A stretch of DNA of 41,125 nt, from NCBI RefSeq assembly GCF_013248915.1, contig NZ_JABNNE010000050.1; one strand, 5' to 3'. Source of the stretch: Corallococcus exiguus. Lineage in GTDB: Bacteria > Myxococcota > Myxococcia > Myxococcales > Myxococcaceae. Shown one piece after another: positions 17,193-33,911 of the stretch (its first letter is position 1; the number at the start of each line of letters is the position of its first letter). The position numbers and the translations under genes are program-made. Under the pieces are notes generated by a model. That model was not told where the DNA came from and did not search any database. It worked only from the letters and a program-made list of their open reading frames with translations.

Positions 17193-20100
17193 CTACCGGC
17201 GCGCCTTGCGAGCCGGCTTGCCCCGAGTGGTCTTCTTCGCCGCGGCCTTCTTCGCGGCGGTCTTCTTCCCCGCCGCCTTCTTCGCCGAAGCCTTCTTCGC
17301 AGGAGCCTTCTTCACCGCCGCCTTCTTCGCGGCCGTCTTCTTGCCCGCTGCCTTCTTCGAGGAAGCCTTATTCGCAGGGGCCTTCTTCGCGGCGGACTTC
17401 TTGCTCGCCGCCTTCTTCGCGGAGGCCTTCTTCGCAGCGGCCTTCTTCACCGCCGCCTTCTTCGCGGAGGCCTTCTTCGCAGGGGCCTTCTTCACCGCCG
17501 CCTTCTTCGCGGAGGCCTTCTTCGTCGGAGCCTTCTTCACCGGCTTCGCCGAACCCTCCGGAGCCTCGCGGGCGTCGCCGCCCTCCTTGGCCCGGTCGAA
17601 CTCGCGCATCGCGTCGTCCACGAGGCCCATGCTCATGTACGCGACGCCCAGGTCGTGGTGGTCCGCCGGGGACAGCCCTTCCTTGGTGCCCTCGCGCAGC
17701 TTGTTGAGGGCCTCCTCCACCACCGGATCCGCGGCCTGGGGCGCCTGCGAAGCCTCTTCGGCTTCAATCTCGCCCTTCAGCTCCTGGCCCAGGTTCACCG
17801 CATCGTCCTTCGGTGCCTGCGGCTCGGTGGCCACCTTCACCTGGGCGCTCTCGGGCGCGGGGGACTCGGACGCTTCAGGGGCTTCGGACTCGGTGCTGCC
17901 CGGCAACGGCGACGGCGTCTCGGACATGGGGGGCTCCGGGGCGATGCGCTGGAGGTGATCCTGCAGCTTGACCGTGCGCTCCTGGAGCTCCGCCACCCGG
18001 GCCTTGTCCTTCTCCACCACGTCCGGCGGAGCACGGGCCACGAAGTTCGGGTTGTCCAGCTTGCGCTGCAAACCGGTGAGTTCCTGCTCGGAGCGGACGA
18101 TCTCCTTCTTCAGGCGGTCGCGCTCCGCGTCCAGGTCCACCAGGCCCGCCAGGGGCACGTAGATTTCCAGGTTGCCGCTCACGAACGCCGCCGCCTGCGG
18201 AGGCTTGGCGCCCGGGGGGCCCACCACCACCTCGGACAGGCCCGCGAGCGGCATCAGGTACGCGCGCCAACGCTCCAACAGCTCGCGCGTCGTCGCGTCC
18301 GGGCTCTGCACCACCGCCTTCACCTTGGCGGACGGCGGCAGGTTGCTCTCGCCGCGCAGCGTGCGCAGGCCCTCGATGGCCGCGATGACCGGCGCCATCT
18401 CGCCTTCCGCGGCCGCGTCCACCCACGCCGTCTCCGGCGCCGGGTACGCCGCGATGCAGATGCTCTCCGTGGGCCGGGACATCGGCAGCTTCTGCCAGAT
18501 CTCCTCGGTGATGAACGGCATGAACGGGTGCATCAGCCGCAGGATGCGGTCCAGGCACGTCACCAGCACCGCGCGCGTGGTGTCCTTGGCCTCCGCGTCG
18601 TCGCCGTACAGCGAGCCCTTCGCCAGCTCGATGTACCAGTCGCAGAACTCCGCCCACAGGAACTGGTACAGCGTGGATGCCGCCTCCGCGAAGCCGAACG
18701 CCTCCAGCGACGCGCGCGTCTCCTCCGTGGCCTTCTGCAGGCGGGAGAGGATCCACCGGTCCGCCAGCGTCAGCTTGCGGCCCTCGAGCGGCGTCTTGTC
18801 CAGGCTGAAGTCGCCCATGTTCATCAGGGCGAACCGGCTGGCGTTCCACAGCTTGTTGCAGAACGCCTTGTAGCCACCCAGGCGGTCCATCGACAGCTTG
18901 ATGTCACGGCCCTGCTGCGTGAGCGACGCCAGCGTGAAGCGCAGCGCGTCCGCGCCGTGCGCCGGCATGCCCTGCGGGAAGCGGTTGCGCAAGGACGGCT
19001 GCAGCGACTCCGCCTTCGCGCCGAGGATGACGTCCAGGGGATCGATGACGTTCCCCTTCGTCTTGGACATCTTCTCGCCCTTCTCGTCGCGCACCATCGC
19101 GTGCAGGTACACGGTGCGGAAGGGCACGTCGTTCATGAAGTGCAGGCCCATCATCATCATCCGGGCGACCCAGAAGAAGATGATGTCGTGGCCCGTCTCC
19201 ATCACGGACGTCGGGTAGAAGGTCTGGAGGTCCGCCGTCTGCTTCGGCCAGCCCAGCGTGGAGAACGGCCACAGCGCGGACGAGAACCAGGTGTCCAGCA
19301 CGTCCGGATCCTGCGTCAGCTCCTTGCCGCCGCACTTCGGGCAGGACTCCGGCGCCGTGCGAGACACGATGACGTCCGCCGTGTCCTTGGAGCGCTCCTC
19401 CGCCGGGGTGCACGCCGCGCAGTACCACGCGGGGATCTGGTGGCCCCACCACAGCTGGCGGCTCACGCACCAGTCGTGGATGTTGTTCATCCAGTGGAAG
19501 TACGTGTTCGTCCACGACTCGGGGACGAACTTCGTGCGGCCCTCCTCCACGGCCTGGATGGCCGGCTTCGCCAGCGGTTCAATCTTGATGAACCACTGCG
19601 GCGACAGGCGCGGCTCCACCACCGTGGTGCAGCGCTGGCAGGTGCCCACGTTCAGCTTGTGCGGCTCCTCCTTCTCCAGCAGGCCCAGCTCCGTCAGGTC
19701 CGCCAGCACCTGCTTGCGCGCCTCCCGGCTCTCCAGGCCCGCGTACTTGCCGGTGTCCTTCGTCATCCGCGCCGCTTCGTCCAGGATGGACAGCATCGGC
19801 AGCTTGTGGCGCAGGCCCGTCTGGTAGTCGTTGAAGTCGTGCGCGGGCGTGACCTTCACCACGCCGGTGCCGAACTCCATGTTCACCAGCTCGCCGTCCG
19901 CGATGACCGGAATCTCACGGTCGGTGAGCGGCAGCGCCACGCTCTTGCCGATGAGGTCCTGGTAGCGCGGATCCTCCGGGTGCACGGCGACGGCCGTGTC
20001 GCCCAGCAGCGTCTCCGGGCGCGTCGTCGCCACGGTGAGGAAGCGCTCCGTGCCCTTCACCGGGTAGCGGATGTGCCAGAGCGAGCCGTTCTTCTCCTCG

Positions 20101-20687
20101 TGCTCCACTTCCAGGTCGGAGAGGGCCGTGCGGCAGGACGGGCACCAGTTGATCAGCTTCTGGGCCCGGTACATCAGGCCCTCTTCGTACAGCCGGACGA
20201 ACACCTCGCGCACCGCGGCCGAGGACTGCTCGTCCATGGTGAAGCGCTCGCGGCTCCAGTCCAGGGACGCGCCCAGGTAGCGGTGCTGCTCACCGATGCG
20301 CGCGCCGAACTTGCCCTTCCACGTCCAGACGCGCTCGAGGAACGCCTCGCGGCCCAGGTCGTGGCGGCTCTTGCCCTCCCTCTTCTTGAGCTCCTTCTCC
20401 ACCACCATCTGCGTGGCGATGCCCGCGTGGTCCGTGCCCGGCAGCCAGAGCGCGTTGAAGCCGCTCATCCGCTTCCAGCGCGTGAGGATGTCCTGGATGG
20501 TCGCGGTGAGCGCGTGGCCGATGTGCAGGCTGCCCGTCACGTTGGGCGGCGGCAGCACGATGCTGAACGGCGGCTTGGAGGAAGGGGCTTCGGCGCGGAA
20601 GTAGTCGCGCTCCAGCCAGTGGTTGTACCACCGCGCCTCCACTTCGGAGGGCTCGTAGGCCTTGGACAGTTCAGTCGTGTCAGTCAT
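17193..20687 (-). CDS. valS: valyl-tRNA synthetase with ~280-aa C-terminal extension (acidic S/P/E linker, TPR-like helix pair, Lys/Ala-rich histone-H1-like tail)
   Basis: HIGH motif [15 protein letters not shown]; KMSKS motif KMSKTKGN; canonical C-terminal coiled coil, then the extension ending in [22 protein letters not shown] repeats. Confidence 0.9.
17200..17560 (-). repeat. low-complexity codon repeat (gccttcttcgc units on plus strand) encoding the (A/S/P)KKA tail of ValRS
   Basis: Seen directly as ~12-nt periodicity. Confidence 0.55.
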
Positions 20688-20740: not shown

Positions 20741-22003
20741 TCAATGCTGGGTCTCGCGGTCCTTGATGAGCCGCTCCAGCTCTTCCCGGATGATGGTCTC
20801 CGCCAGCTGCGGAACGACCTCCCAGGCAATCTTCTCGATGACCTCGCGGGACGCCTTCGACAGCGCCTCGCGCAGCAGCGCCTCTCCGCCATCCGCGGCC
20901 GGACGGGCGCGCGCGGGCGGAGTCGCCGGCGAGGGACCGCCGATGTCCAGGGAGATCTCCTCCGCGCCGCTGGGCTCGGGCAGCGAGTCCTCGATGCGAA
21001 TGCTCTCCGTACGGGCCTGCGCCGCGGGCGGGGCGGCCGGAGCGCCCAGCCCGAACGGATCCCGGGCACGGGCGGCCGGAGGCACCGCGGCGGGCGGGGG
21101 CGCGGACGGCAGCGGCGCGGCGCCCGGAGGACGCGGGAAGCCGCCCGGGATGTTCGGGGCGCCAGGGCCCGGAGGACGCGCGGCCATGCCCGGAGGCGGT
21201 GCACCCGGCGGACGCGCGCCCGGAGGCACGGCACCCGGAGGAGGACGCGCACCCGGCGGCATGGCGCCCGGAGGCGGCGCCCCCGGAGGACGCGCGCCCA
21301 TGCCCGGAGGCGGCGCACCCGGCGGAGGACGTGCACCCGGCGGCATGGCGCCCGGAGGCGGCGCACCCGGAGGACGCGCGCCCGGAGGAACAGCGCCCGG
21401 CAGCGGACGCGCCGCACCCGGAGGAGGAGGCACACCGGCGCCCGGAGGACGCGCGCCCGGAGGCGGCGCACCCGGCGGAGGACGCGCACCCGGCGGCATG
21501 GCGCCCGGAGGCGGCGCACCCGCGGGACGCGCACCCGGCGGCACGGCGGCGGCGGGCGGCGCGCTGACCGGAGCGCTCGGGGCGGAGGTCTGGGGCAGAA
21601 TGCGCGTCGCGGCGGACGCGGGCATCGTGTTGGACTTCTGGCCCACCAGCGCCTTCACCTTGTCGAGGAGGATCTGGCTCTCGAAGGGCTTGGTGATGTG
21701 GTCATCCGCCCGGGCGGCCTTCGCGCGGTTCTCGTCGAACGCCTCGAAGGTGCCGGCGAGCAGCAGCACCGGGATGGCCTGCGTGGAGGGGTCGCCCTTG
21801 AGCGCCTCGCAGACCTCGTAGCCGCTCTTGCCCGGCATCATCACGTCGGCGAGCACCACGTCCGGACGCAGCTCGCGCGTGCGGGAGATGGCGTCCAGCC
21901 CGTTGTCCACCGCGGTCACCTGGAAGTCTTCCGTCGCGAAGATCATCCCGATCACCTTGCGGATGGTGAGCGAGTCGTCGGCGATCAGTAGATTCTTGGG
22001 CAT
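20741..22003 (-). CDS. romR: RomR-like response regulator (REC domain, long Pro-rich linker, conserved acidic C-terminal helix region)
   Basis: N-terminal REC (MPKNLLIADDSLTIRKVIGMIFATEDFQVTAVDNGLDAISRTRELRPDVVLADVMMPGKSGYEVCEAL); ~200-aa PGARPPGAPPPG repeats; Glu-rich C-terminal tail; 420 aa; start set to MPKNLL (22003), not the track's 22087. Confidence 0.75.
   Translation of the reverse strand: MPKNLLIADDSLTIRKVIGMIFATEDFQVTAVDNGLDAISRTRELRPDVVLADVMMPGKSGYEVCEALKGDPSTQAIPVLLLAGTFEAFDENRAKAARADDHITKPFESQILLDKVKALVGQKSNTMPASAATRILPQTSAPSAPVSAPPAAAVPPGARPAGAPPPGAMPPGARPPPGAPPPGARPPGAGVPPPPGAARPLPGAVPPGARPPGAPPPGAMPPGARPPPGAPPPGMGARPPGAPPPGAMPPGARPPPGAVPPGARPPGAPPPGMAARPPGPGAPNIPGGFPRPPGAAPLPSAPPPAAVPPAARARDPFGLGAPAAPPAAQARTESIRIEDSLPEPSGAEEISLDIGGPSPATPPARARPAADGGEALLREALSKASREVIEKIAWEVVPQLAETIIREELERLIKDRETQH
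21090..21560 (-). repeat. GC-rich degenerate tandem repeat (~15-18 nt units) encoding the Pro-rich linker
   Basis: Seen directly (cccggaggacgcgcgcccggaggcggcgcacccggcgg iterations). Confidence 0.6.
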
Positions 22004-22120
22004 CGGCTCCGGCCTCGGGGGGCGCATACCCCCCTGAATTCGTTTGAGATTTCGGGCGAGCAAGCCTGCCTGCACGCCCTGTGTCAATCGGAGAAGCTTA
22101 GGATTCGCGCGTTGGGCCGA

Positions 22121-22987
22121 TCAAGAAAACATGCGCTGCAGGTCCAGTAACATCACCGGATCCGGCAGCCCCGGCGCCCGGAACGTTCCGGGAAGCTCGG
22201 CCGGCTTGAACTTCTGCAGCACACCCAGCACCCGGGTGGCCGCCAGCCCTACGTTCCGCCCCGCCAGTTCCGTGAGGACGAACAGCTCCTCCGCCTGGGC
22301 CGGCGCACCCAGCAGCGCTGGAATCGAACAGATGGGCCATAGCGCCTGCGCGTGGGGATAGACGCCCGCCACCGGCCCGCTCTGCACCGGGAGCACGCTG
22401 AACGCCTCGCCCCGGGGTACCACCTGGGAGACGCAACCCAGCGGGACGCCGAACAGCACCCCCTGGGACTCCAGCACCAGCGCCCGCTCCGGGGGCGCGT
22501 CCGCATAGTGCACGGGCCGGGGCTCTGGCGGGGTCGCCCGGGGGCCCGCCCGGTGCGGCAGCGCTTCCACGATGAGCTCCAGGTACAGCCGGTCCTTGTG
22601 CAGCACCGCGCCCCGGCTCAGCGGCGCCAGCGAGTCCGCCAGGCCCGGAGGCAGCAGGAAGAACGGGTCCCTCGCGACGTCCGCGACCTCCACCACGGCG
22701 CGCACCCGCACCGCGAGCGTGGGGCTGACGTCCAGGACCACCACCATGCCCGGCACTTCCTCAGGCAGGCCGCCGAGCAGCGCGGCGAGGTCCTTCACTT
22801 CCAGTACGCCGCGCAGACTCGCGCCGCGAGCGCCCGGCATCGCGACCTCGATGACGGAGGTGGCCTCCACCGCGTAGCGCGTCTCTCCGGCCTCCACCAG
22901 CAGGCAGAGCCGCCGTCCGCTTTCAAAGGGCACGGCCCGGGACCCTAGCAGCCTTCCAGCGTTGGGTGCTAAGCCCTGAACAGTCAT
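22121..22987 (-). CDS. tandem CheW-like domain protein
   Basis: Two CheW-like segments (LLVEAGETRYAVEATSVIEV...; LVLESQGVLFGVPLGCVSQVV...); RBS GAGGAG 12 nt upstream of ATG at 22987; start codon overlaps the divergent gene's start (CATG). Confidence 0.55.
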   Translation of the reverse strand: MTVQGLAPNAGRLLGSRAVPFESGRRLCLLVEAGETRYAVEATSVIEVAMPGARGASLRGVLEVKDLAALLGGLPEEVPGMVVVLDVSPTLAVRVRAVVEVADVARDPFFLLPPGLADSLAPLSRGAVLHKDRLYLELIVEALPHRAGPRATPPEPRPVHYADAPPERALVLESQGVLFGVPLGCVSQVVPRGEAFSVLPVQSGPVAGVYPHAQALWPICSIPALLGAPAQAEELFVLTELAGRNVGLAATRVLGVLQKFKPAELPGTFRAPGLPDPVMLLDLQRMFS

Positions 22988-24374
22988 GGCGCGACTGCTC
23001 CTCGTCGACGACGAAAAGATCGCCCGCAATCTCTACGGCGACTACCTCACGGCCGCGGGACACCTGGTCACGGCGGTGCCCACCGTGGCGGACGCGAAGG
23101 CCGCCCTCTCCGCGGCGCGGTTCGACGCGGTGGTGACGGACCTCATCCTCCCCGGCGGCGACGGCATGGAGGTGCTTCGCCACGTGCGCGAGCGCTACCC
23201 CGGCGTGGAGGTGCTGGTCATCACCGGCCTGGACAAGGTGGCCCCCGCGGTGCGCGCCATCAAGAGCGGCGCGGCGGAGTACCTGGTCAAGCCCGTGGCG
23301 CCGGAGGCCCTGGAGCACGCGCTGCGCCGCGCGCTCACCACGCGCGACCTGATGCGTGAGAACGCATCCCTGCGCCAGCACGTCGCGCTGCTGGAGGCGG
23401 GCCAGCGCATCGCCACCACGCTCGACCGCGAGCGGCTGTCCACGGCCGCGTCCGACGCGCTGGAGTCCATGGCCAACGCCTCCGCGGTGATGCTCCTGGA
23501 GCGGGACCCCGGCGGCACGGGCTTCCGCTCGCACGGCATGCGCGGGCTGCCGGTGGACCTGCACGAGGCGCTCGTCCCGCTGCTCATCGAGCGGCTTTCG
23601 GGCACGCGCACGCAGGTGGAGCTCGACGGACTTCAAGTTCCCTGGCCGCGCACCCTCTCCTTCCCCGCCGTGGACGGCGAGCTGGTGCTGGGCCACGCGG
23701 TGCTCTTCCACGACAACGCGCCCGCGGAGCACCACGCGGAGACCGTGGGCTTCCTCGTGCGCAACTGGGCGCTGGCCCTGCGCAACCTGGGCCGCTTCGC
23801 CGCCGTGGAGGACCTGGCCTACGTCGATGATCTCACCCGCCTGTTCAACACGCGCTACCTGCACCTGGTGCTGGACCGCGAGGTGAACGAGGCCCTCCAG
23901 ACGGAGCGCCCCTTCTCCCTGCTGTTCCTGGACCTGGACCGCTTCAAGGCCATCAACGACACGCACGGGCACCTGGTGGGCTCGCGGGTGCTGGTGGAGG
24001 CCGCGCGCGTGCTCAAGGGCTGCGTGCGCGACCCGGACGTGGTGGCGCGCTTCGGCGGCGACGAGTACGTGGTGCTCCTGCGCGGCACGGACTCCGGCGG
24101 GGCCCTCAAGGTCGCCGAGCGCATCCGCCGCACCATGGAGACCCATCAGTTCCTGGGCCGCGAGGGGCTGGCGCTCAAGCTCACCACCTGCATCGGCGTG
24201 GCCAGCTTCCCGGAGCACGCCCAGGACAAGGACCACCTGCTGGACCTGTCCGACCGGGCCATGTACCGGGGCAAGCGCGGCACCCGGAACGTCGTCTACA
24301 TGGCGGCGCAGGACCTGGAAGCCACCCCGGCCGAGCGCCGTCAGAATCCCCCGCCCCCGCAGGGCCAGGGCTGA
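22986..24374 (+). CDS. response regulator with REC - GAF-like - GGDEF domains (GGDEY variant)
   Basis: REC (LLLVDDEKIARNL...DLILPGGDGMEV...KPV); GGDEF domain with RFGGDEYVVLL active-site variant and RxxD-like I-site context (DRFKAIND). Confidence 0.8.
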   Translation: MARLLLVDDEKIARNLYGDYLTAAGHLVTAVPTVADAKAALSAARFDAVVTDLILPGGDGMEVLRHVRERYPGVEVLVITGLDKVAPAVRAIKSGAAEYLVKPVAPEALEHALRRALTTRDLMRENASLRQHVALLEAGQRIATTLDRERLSTAASDALESMANASAVMLLERDPGGTGFRSHGMRGLPVDLHEALVPLLIERLSGTRTQVELDGLQVPWPRTLSFPAVDGELVLGHAVLFHDNAPAEHHAETVGFLVRNWALALRNLGRFAAVEDLAYVDDLTRLFNTRYLHLVLDREVNEALQTERPFSLLFLDLDRFKAINDTHGHLVGSRVLVEAARVLKGCVRDPDVVARFGGDEYVVLLRGTDSGGALKVAERIRRTMETHQFLGREGLALKLTTCIGVASFPEHAQDKDHLLDLSDRAMYRGKRGTRNVVYMAAQDLEATPAERRQNPPPPQGQG

Positions 24375-33812: not shown

Positions 33813-33911
33813 GGTAGGGCCTCCGGACCTGGTGGCCGGCCCGGTCTTCAAAACCGGTGAGGGGCTGCGAGAGCAGTCCCTGGCGAGTTCGATTCCCGTG
33901 CCCTACCGCCA
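33813..33911 (+). tRNA. selC: tRNA with UCA anticodon and long variable arm; probable tRNA-Sec (selC-like)
   Basis: 8-bp acceptor stem GGTAGGGC/GCCCTACC + G73 + CCA; anticodon arm CCGGT-cTTCAaa-ACCGG (U33, UCA, A37); 8-bp variable-arm stem with GAGA loop; T-arm GCGAG-TTCGATT-CCCGT (one A.C mismatch); 8/5 architecture. Confidence 0.5.
33847..33911 (+). repeat. attL-like: 3' 65 nt of the tRNA (anticodon loop to CCA), direct repeat partner at 38137..38201
   Basis: 62/65 identity with the downstream copy, same orientation. Confidence 0.65.

Follow-up and report, generated by a model that had tools for sequence, protein, structure and literature searches.

Lysine-rich extensions appended to eukaryotic aminoacyl-tRNA synthetases act in cis to reduce the Km for tRNA, with yeast valyl-tRNA synthetase (ValRS) among their carriers. 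In the yeast enzyme, to go by the title of one study, a non-specific tRNA-binding domain reportedly promotes an active synthetase/tRNA complex. Moreover, the Trbp111-type tRNA-binding protein is a free protein in some species and a C-terminal domain of methionyl-tRNA synthetase (MetRS) in others. In this study, a C-terminal extension was analyzed on the ValRS encoded by valS of Corallococcus exiguus, located in a stretch of DNA of 41,125 nucleotides from contig NZ_JABNNE010000050.1 (hereafter the window). Lysine-rich extensions of eukaryotic synthetases bind RNA non-specifically, with a Kd of ~0.6 µM for the appended domain of glutaminyl-tRNA synthetase (GlnRS) (PMC2992532). A second source also describes RNA binding without sequence specificity for these extensions (PMC6213541), and background on Trbp111 is found in a third (PMC11286949). 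In bacteria, the tails of AlgP and PhaF, which are rich in Lys, Ala and Pro (K/A/P), bind DNA or polyphosphate granules (PMC9239181), as do the PAKKA repeats of M. smegmatis Ku (PMC3553676), and Anaeromyxobacter CarD possesses a histone H1-like domain in place of the DNA-binding HMGA domain (PMC2919716).

Bacterial ValRSs normally end at a coiled-coil arm, and relatives of the window ValRS without an extension terminate with ..NLxRI(x) followed by a stop codon. The window ValRS continues past its coiled coil, in frame, for 249 amino acid residues (aa 916–1164). This extension is a genuine, lineage-specific ValRS appendage of Myxococcaceae/Archangiaceae and, judging from its conservation, is under selection. 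The gene and the parts of its product are as follows.

17193..20687, minus strand: valS, long-form valine--tRNA ligase, 1164 aa plus stop codon (list of open reading frames, NCBIfam equivalogs, identity with C. exiguus)
18138..20687, minus strand: ValRS body, aa 1–850, with the catalytic Rossmann fold, the CP1 editing domain and the anticodon-binding domain (Pfam and AlphaFold2 model)
17943..18137, minus strand: coiled-coil tRNA-binding arm, aa 851–915 (Pfam Val_tRNA-synt_C; predicted helices aa 852–878 and 888–914)
17850..17942, minus strand: acidic Ser/Pro/Glu-rich linker, aa 916–946, net charge -7 (composition, AlphaFold2 model)
17925..17937, minus strand: in-frame ATG of Met921 (17925–17927) with GGAG (17934–17937) 6 nt upstream, a candidate internal start and candidate relic of a gene boundary
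17730..17849, minus strand: semi-conserved acidic segment, aa 947–986, starting QVKVA.., with a predicted helix at aa 966–980
17568..17729, minus strand: helix plus single tetratricopeptide repeat (TPR) unit, aa 987–1040 (conservation, predicted helices, matches to TPRs)
Between the TPR unit and the tail: short spacer, aa 1041–1049
17196..17540, minus strand: histone H1-like polycationic tail, aa 1050–1164, of (KKxxx)n with a 15-aa super-unit (Pfam HC2)

The window ValRS was 99% identical to the deposited ValRS of C. exiguus. Its translation contained the class Ia signatures LHIGH (aa 54–58) and KMSKT (the KMSKS motif; aa 539–543), and Pfam assigned tRNA-synt_1 (aa 20–599), tRNA-synt_1_2, Anticodon_1 (aa 643–792) and Val_tRNA-synt_C (aa 851–915). 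With its catalytic, CP1 and anticodon-binding domains and its C-terminal coiled-coil arm, the protein belongs to the class Ia valine--tRNA ligases. The AlphaFold2 (AF2) confidence, given as the predicted local distance difference test (pLDDT), was mostly 85–97 across the body. The scores against the NCBIfam models TIGR00422 and PRK05729 were 1137 bits (cutoff 612) and 1255 bits (cutoff 704), respectively. The long-form model NF011492/PRK14900, a "valine--tRNA ligase" model of 1044 positions, was matched with 1818.6 bits (cutoff 1783), residues 1–1110 corresponding to model positions 3–1031. The G+C content at third codon positions (GC3) in the valS frame was 0.83–0.95 across the whole extension to the stop codon, a measure that by itself cannot separate a sense frame from an antisense frame with common third positions. 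The strand and frame of the extension are settled because it is continuous with the ValRS core and conserved in related loci, as the TPR unit and the core lay in one open reading frame (ORF) in 79 of the 80 loci fetched, which included complete chromosomes.

The first-pass annotation, made from the DNA alone, had described a ValRS core that continues in frame into an acidic linker, two TPR-like helices and a lysine-rich tail resembling histone H1. This anatomy was right, and all three sequence strings that it quoted are present in the translation, including the acidic string of 26 residues at aa 922–947 and the TPR-like string of 26 residues at aa 1009–1034. The extension is as real and as in-frame as was claimed, but its length is 249 aa and not ~280 aa. 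The latter is an overcount because the interval 17193..18050 (285 codons) takes in the last 36 residues of the coiled coil. The lysine-repeat tail was likewise correctly recognized, with about 21 pentapeptides in place of the ~25 repeats of KKA/AKKAS that had been counted.

Comparison of ValRS lengths among relatives, which the annotation had proposed, separated proteins of 1040–1332 aa with the extension from tail-less proteins of 910–934 aa. The extension-bearing ValRSs were from Corallococcus, Myxococcus, Pyxidicoccus, Citreicoccus, Hyalangium, Stigmatella, Melittangium and Archangium as well as many assemblies of uncultured genomes. At least 127 species genomes encoded the TPR unit in a scan with one genome per species. 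Except one record titled "Comamonas sp.", all named genomes with the unit belonged to Myxococcaceae or Archangiaceae. This record (BNCN01000007.1, "Comamonas sp. KCTC 72670"; L021 in our locus set) had a Myxococcus-type valS, an ORF of 1363 codons with the TPR unit and the tail, followed by nadC, and its Comamonas label is probably wrong. A protein search with one profile of the extension (A2) returned short ValRS fragments only and added no taxonomic breadth.

The basic tail that follows the TPR unit ranged from 42 to 282 aa in the 80 loci, with 19 to 74 Lys+Arg and almost no acidic residues. Its KK periodicity, composition and basic ..RR end were kept in more than 100 species. Three variants of the C-terminal region were also found. 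The first was a short-linker clade (..RIAPVEVKIAPP..), which is without the acidic Ser/Pro/Glu linker. The second was an Archangium/Melittangium-type, in which the TPR region is replaced by a poly-Glu/Asp block and the lysine tail is kept. The third comprised ValRSs of 910–934 aa ending at the coiled coil.

In the predicted model, the appendage is built like beads on a string: a disordered linker, a small folded helix plus TPR unit and a disordered polycation. The linker was hypervariable (majority fraction 0.23). The segment of aa 947–986 was better kept (majority fraction 0.55), with a consensus of VKxAP..G.VDL..ELK.EL in the alignment, and a conserved VKVA..VNLGxELK stretch was present between the linker and the TPR unit. 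In the full-length AF2 model, built with an alignment of 64 sequences, the pLDDT was below 50 for aa 921–971, aa 977–986 and the entire tail, along which it was ~30.

The tail of 115 aa contained 43 Lys and 42 Ala, with a net charge of +47 and 20 KK dipeptides in a five-residue register. The summed charge of the extension portion preceding it was -19. At the DNA level, a tandem array with a period of 15 nt (20.7 copies) or 45 nt (6.9 copies) occupied 17232–17542. The H1-like character given to the tail by the first-pass annotation is borne out by Pfam HC2 (histone H1-like, PF07382; aa 1051–1161), which scored 42.9 bits with the whole protein and 49 bits with the tail alone at a gathering cutoff of 40, HC2 being a family defined mainly by composition. 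The NCBIfam H1-like equivalogs NF038053 and NF038052 (Hc2) gave 45.7 bits (cutoff 80) and 28.2 bits (cutoff 135), respectively, so that the tail belongs to neither. Among 5.8 billion proteins searched, the nearest compositional matches of the tail were the C-terminal tails of mycobacterial and Streptomyces HU, followed by phasins, SWIB, DksA-type, topoisomerase I, RsfS and ribosomal L30/L21 proteins, all with a Pfam HC2 signal. No other aminoacyl-tRNA synthetase was found among the best 120 matches of this search. The tails of Corallococcus differed by insertions or deletions in units of five residues, with the KK columns fixed and the x positions variable. Seven differences were found between the window ValRS and the 99% identical database ValRS, six of them in the extension.

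The TPR unit was as conserved as the catalytic core. Its majority fraction was 0.81, and those of the core and the coiled coil were 0.83 and 0.71, respectively, among sequences that were ~60–70% identical overall. A near-invariant motif, DPQV.e...MGLVDDAvREF, was found in 86 of the 120 best ValRS relatives. Within the unit, D1011, L1012, G1013, A1015, M1019, G1020, L1021, D1023 and A1025 were invariant. Such strong conservation implies a specific contact with a partner. AF2 predicted helices at aa 966–980, 988–1000, 1007–1019 and 1023–1035, of which the hairpin had a pLDDT above 90 in the isolated model. The TPR-like reading of the first-pass annotation is supported by several lines of evidence, one being the matches to multi-repeat TPR proteins in the exhaustive search described below. 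Pfam TPR models were matched below threshold (TPR_2, 17.9 bits with a cutoff of 27, E 0.003; TPR_14, 15.5 bits with a cutoff of 23.5), the family profile matched MamA (E 1.5e-6) and designed consensus TPR proteins in the PDB, and the predicted hairpin superposed on TPRs with 0.4–0.6 Å over 29–30 residues, for which the Foldseek E-values were not significant, the unit being short. One hairpin and one preceding helix were found, not a tandem array of three or more TPRs. By its sequence and its model, aa 987–1040 thus probably holds a single TPR and not a TPR domain.

When 1.84 billion representative proteins were searched exhaustively with the profile, multi-repeat TPR proteins were matched at profile positions 23–50 only. 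The complete helix plus TPR unit was found in this search only in C-terminal fragments of ValRS (28 full-length matches inspected). Free-standing copies of the unit were sought and rejected, as the other matches were generic multi-TPR proteins and an unrelated TPR family of ~900 aa. The members of the latter in the representative library (P0170, P0178, P0212, P0219, P0220, P0245 and P0252) were TPR proteins of ~880–990 aa in which units of "helix + HYDLGVAY.eMGL.dEAi.EF" occur three times with long acidic linkers between them. Their local architecture is the same as that of the ValRS extension, yet the proteins are unrelated. A further lead was SgmX, a polar activator of type IV pili whose last three TPRs bind MglA-GTP (PMC9811614), because its C-terminal part was the best NCBIfam match of the TPR unit and because valS neighbors romR. 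The match to the SgmX model NF052243 (38.8 bits, E 3.5e-10) covered model positions 831–925 only, far from the more than 1800 bits and 14 TPRs of a member, and it was rejected as specific evidence because unrelated multi-TPR proteins match the same model segment.

Comparison of the related loci showed that the extension occurs in fused, split and absent states. The first-pass annotation had stated that the extension is not a gene-fusion artefact with its neighbor nadC. The extension is indeed neither an artefact nor fused to nadC, but it behaves as an evolutionary fusion/fission module because some relatives carry a separate small gene at the same place and others have lost the extension. In the P0116 lineage (21 independently sampled contigs) and in the related P0113 and P0101, valS encoded 918 aa and ended with ..SRI-TGA, and a separate ORF with its own GGAGG was located between valS and nadC. 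In the loci of this type examined (L082, L083, L089 and L090), the ATG of the separate ORF was 15 nt past the last shared Ile codon, a spacing identical to that of Met921 in the window. The ORF was 136 aa long in L082 and L083; in L089 it ran off the contig, and L090 showed no more than its start. Its product starts with MSE.., is acidic and rich in Gly and Met in its N-terminal part, and finishes with a Lys/Arg-rich tail whose last residues are ..SRR. Between clusters the ORF was diverged with its frame kept (GC3 0.85). BLASTP revealed no significant similarity between the 136-aa product and the window extension (E = 12), and their correspondence is for this reason positional and architectural only. 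On another contig (P0091; JGI 3300047160), valS was followed by a separate ORF of 172 aa (P0174) with the VKV..TPR..K-tail sequence. This split, seen on one contig, may result from a frameshift, and a metagenome scan for more genes of the P0174 type yielded one partial locus and nothing usable. In four other lineages, valS directly abutted nadC and the extension was absent.

Two gene calls that contained the tail only were rejected as artefacts, P0130 sitting at the start of a contig and P0446 being from a frameshift-ridden long-read assembly. In L081 (GCA_964268505.1, a 6.1-Mb contig), valS was fragmented into a number of gene calls (of 538 aa and 115 aa, among others), as is typical of uncorrected long-read frameshifts, and tail-only calls from assemblies of this type should therefore not be taken for split genes.

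In a neighbor-joining tree of the ValRS core, rooted with E. coli ValRS, fused TPR-bearing sequences were outside all others in 99.5% of 200 bootstraps, and the tail-less forms were never recovered as a single group. This topology suggests that the fused state is ancestral within the sample and that loss or fission occurred several times, which is provisional as the outgroup branch is long. By these sequence comparisons, the extension is an old gene fusion and an evolutionary fusion/fission module in the valS–nadC slot.

Compared to the described systems, the extension combines features of several. Similar to the appended domains of eukaryotic synthetases, such as those of yeast ValRS and GlnRS and the N-terminal one of mammalian lysyl-tRNA synthetase, it is a lysine-rich, disordered or helical and non-catalytic extension. 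The eukaryotic domains, however, are N-terminal, do not consist of tandem pentapeptides, lack an acidic linker or TPR and share no sequence homology with the ValRS tail. The resemblance is therefore one of composition and context only, and tRNA binding by the tail described here is putative. Similar to the bacterial H1-like K/A/P tails of HC2, HupB, Ku, AlgP/PhaF and CarD, the tail has a lysine periodicity of 4–5 residues, disorder and a varying number of repeats. Those tails belong to proteins associated with DNA, granules or transcription, whereas this one sits on a synthetase. It is not of the AlgP/PhaF-type with KPAA repeats, since its unit is a pentapeptide (KKxxx/AKKAx) with a period of 15 nt and no AlgP/PhaF N-terminal domain is present, and the repeat is closer to PAKKA than to KPAA.

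The fused, split and absent states of the module follow the same logic as Trbp111/Arc1p/EMAPII, which are found as a free protein or as a C-terminal domain of MetRS. Different from Trbp111, which is a folded dimer with an OB fold, the ValRS extension consists of one TPR hairpin and a disordered polycation; no OB fold was detected in it by Pfam or NCBIfam, and AF2 showed helices and disorder only. A structural parallel to the folded part is provided by isolated TPR units between acidic low-complexity linkers, such as TPR3 of FimV (PDB 4mal/4mbq), likewise a single TPR hairpin with a capping helix and acidic disordered flanks, on which the ValRS unit superposed with a root-mean-square deviation of 1.2 Å over 33–34 residues, again at Foldseek E-values that were not significant for so short a unit. 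PRK14900/NF011492 already covers the long form including the extension; it names the protein and is silent on the parts or the function of the extension. Thus, the sequence is already catalogued (PRK14900; Pfam HC2), and two known kinds of element are combined with a TPR in a new arrangement. As far as searches of the literature show, neither the conserved internal Met nor the series of fused, split and absent states has been described before.

What the extension does can be proposed from this analysis. The roles suggested by the first-pass annotation, namely better tRNA capture, binding of nucleic acid or polyphosphate and a part in localisation, are plausible. We give roughly even chances to its being a selected fusion/fission appendage with a polyanion-binding tail that would capture tRNA and a TPR that would dock a protein. 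The tail, with its charge of +47, would bind polyanions non-specifically, above all tRNA, other RNA or DNA. Being tethered beside the tRNA-binding arm, it would raise the local tRNA concentration and the affinity for ValRS in cis. The acidic blocks (net charge of -19) may serve as an internal counter-ion that tempers or auto-inhibits the tail, and the conserved TPR unit would dock a protein partner. As seen in the complex of T. thermophilus ValRS with tRNA, the coiled-coil arm contacts the tRNA elbow. Capture of tRNA or other RNA in cis is the most economical explanation because the tail is tethered at the base of this arm.

Several observations weigh against this proposal. The appendage is dispensable for ValRS as such, given that several close lineages are without it, and the Archangium/Melittangium-type has lost the TPR unit, so that only a poly-Glu/Asp block and the lysine tail remain. 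Covalent linkage is not essential, because a separately encoded version exists, and the module may function alone. The full-length AF2 model showed no sign that the TPR unit docks on ValRS, as neither strand pairing nor a gain in confidence was found for the VKVA segment or the TPR. Bacterial tails of such composition that were tested bind DNA or polyphosphate, not tRNA (PMC9239181, PMC3553676). Finally, no paper on the myxobacterial ValRS extension was found in literature searches, the sole mention being that of MXAN4460 as a gene flanking romR.

A second explanation, possible but with the balance tilted against it, is that valS gives two products. In this case, Met921 would serve as an internal start, and the gene would encode the full-length ValRS as well as a free acidic/TPR/H1-like protein of ~244 aa. 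The latter may be nucleoid- or RNA-associated, and what is now a fusion would be two translationally coupled genes frozen together. Such a dual output is compatible with tRNA capture by the appendage and does not exclude it. Met921 corresponds in position to the first codon of the separate ORF in L082, L083, L089 and L090, where valS stops at TGA and an ORF beginning with "MSE.." opens at the equivalent ATG with GGAGG upstream. A Met was found four positions after ..APE in 47 of the 52 long-linker loci, although the neighboring residues vary freely. The tail is kept, however, without this Met in the other 5 long forms, in all short-linker forms and in most Archangium-type forms. The earliest-branching fused sequences (P0114, P0119 and P0120) also have a Met shortly past an acidic codon.

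The Pro codon was CCG, which with GAG makes GGAG, in 50 of 51 long forms, compared to 20 of 27 short forms without the Met. Nevertheless, the encoded residues may by themselves account for the GGAG, as "PE" also ends some tail-less ValRSs, and the Shine-Dalgarno-like pairing at Met921 is moderate (-5.8 kcal/mol, rank 4 of 30 in-frame ATGs in the gene). In 45 loci, the mRNA structure was weakest around ATG921, with a mean minimum free energy in 40 nt of -6 to -7.5 versus -10 to -13 in the flanks, which may simply come from C-rich Ser/Pro/Glu codons. The split ORF that would support a mobile gene boundary is the one of 136 aa without significant BLASTP similarity to the extension. Judged from these sequence features, we regard it as a tentative proposition that a gene of 244 codons is nested at the 3' end of valS and read from Met921, and that its free product might serve as a tRNA cofactor in trans or act on the nucleoid, on RNA or on polyphosphate. 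If true, a gene boundary that comes and goes would have been caught at different moments in the fused, split and absent loci.

The polycation may also tether ValRS to nucleoid, ribosomes or polyphosphate granules or drive condensates, with the TPR binding a cellular landmark. The purpose would then be localisation or moonlighting, that is, placement or storage of the enzyme, for example in development or sporulation, and not catalysis. This explanation appears rather unlikely, although tails of the AlgP, PhaF, Ku and HupB type bind DNA or polyphosphate granules where tested, and the layout of an acidic block followed by a basic one resembles that of myxobacterial CarD/HMGA-type domains. That the tail is dispensable in some lineages and separately encodable also fits with it. 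The conserved order of romR, a polarity gene, and valS would fit as well, but the same adjacency exists in tail-less lineages and thus says nothing specific about the tail. Similarly, the match between the TPR unit and SgmX is not specific, as generic TPR proteins match the same segment.

Neutral growth of low-complexity sequence, in which read-through and repeat slippage left a tolerated and functionless extension, is very improbable. The highly variable length of the tail with its indels in repeat units, the finding that the extension holds all but one of the 7 differences to the 99% identical deposited protein, and the several losses of the extension could all be explained by it. However, the TPR unit is conserved like the catalytic core at ~60–70% overall identity, the composition, KK periodicity and basic ..RR end of the tail are maintained in more than 100 species, and lineages with a broken fusion still carry the module as a gene of its own. 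An assembly or frameshift artefact joining valS to a separate downstream ORF is scarcely credible. Repeats are prone to assembler or polymerase slippage and some metagenome tail-only gene calls exist, but 79 of 80 independent genomes, complete chromosomes among them, have the same continuous ORF, the GC3 phase is unbroken, and the tail-only calls checked (P0130 and P0446) are contig-end or long-read frameshift artefacts.

The two genes that flank valS in the window are as follows.

16305..17189, minus strand: nadC, quinolinate phosphoribosyltransferase, downstream of valS (Pfam QRPTase_N and QRPTase_C)
20741..22087, minus strand: romR orthologue, upstream of valS, with a receiver domain (Pfam Response_reg), a Pro-rich region and a Glu-rich C-terminus

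nadC was downstream of valS in nearly all related loci. The first possible GTG of nadC (17189) is 3 nt past the valS stop codon and overlaps a GGAGG. Judged from its position 5 nt downstream of this GGAGG, the GTG at 17183 is the likely start, and valS and nadC are probably translationally coupled. The Pro-rich region of romR has a G+C content of up to 0.84, and its start is probably Met29, which gives 420 aa as in M. xanthus. The C-terminus of RomR was encoded upstream of valS on the same strand in 68 of 81 loci, including lineages with a tail-less ValRS. A CheW-domain protein is encoded at 22121..23029 on the minus strand, preceding romR, and the order CheW-romR-valS-nadC, kept in 68 of 81 related loci, agrees with the corresponding region of M. 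xanthus. There, the gene next to romR (MXAN4461) is MXAN4460, described as "similar to Val-tRNA synthetases" (PMC2034494).

Three other features of the window were observed. At 13325..15601 on the minus strand, a protein of 758 aa possesses Major Vault Protein (MVP) repeats (Vault, Vault_2/3/4) and an MVP shoulder domain (E 9e-45). As a bacterial homologue of the protein that forms the shell of eukaryotic vaults, it is an unusual find, and it matches no NCBIfam family. At 12250..13239 on the minus strand, a protein of 329 aa has an HmuY-like domain (E 3.4e-14) and an acidic N-terminal region rich in Thr, Asp and Gly. A gene for selenocysteine tRNA is located at 33813..33907 on the plus strand (Rfam tRNA-Sec, 70.5 bits, E 1.4e-12).

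Appended domains that bind RNA non-specifically are usually taught as an innovation of eukaryotic synthetases, and a comparable appendage has been kept here by a whole bacterial lineage, the myxobacteria with their social and developmental life. It is made of bacterial parts: an H1/PAKKA-type polycation, an acidic block to counter it and one TPR whose conservation equals that of the active site. If the tail aids in tRNA capture, the appendage would be a case of convergent evolution of the eukaryotic solution. If instead it tethers ValRS to nucleoid, ribosomes or polyphosphate, the supply for translation would be linked to the organisation of the cell and to the complex development of these bacteria. 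The series of fused, split and absent states together with the internal Met is a natural experiment on the gain of accessory domains by synthetases and perhaps on genes with dual products.

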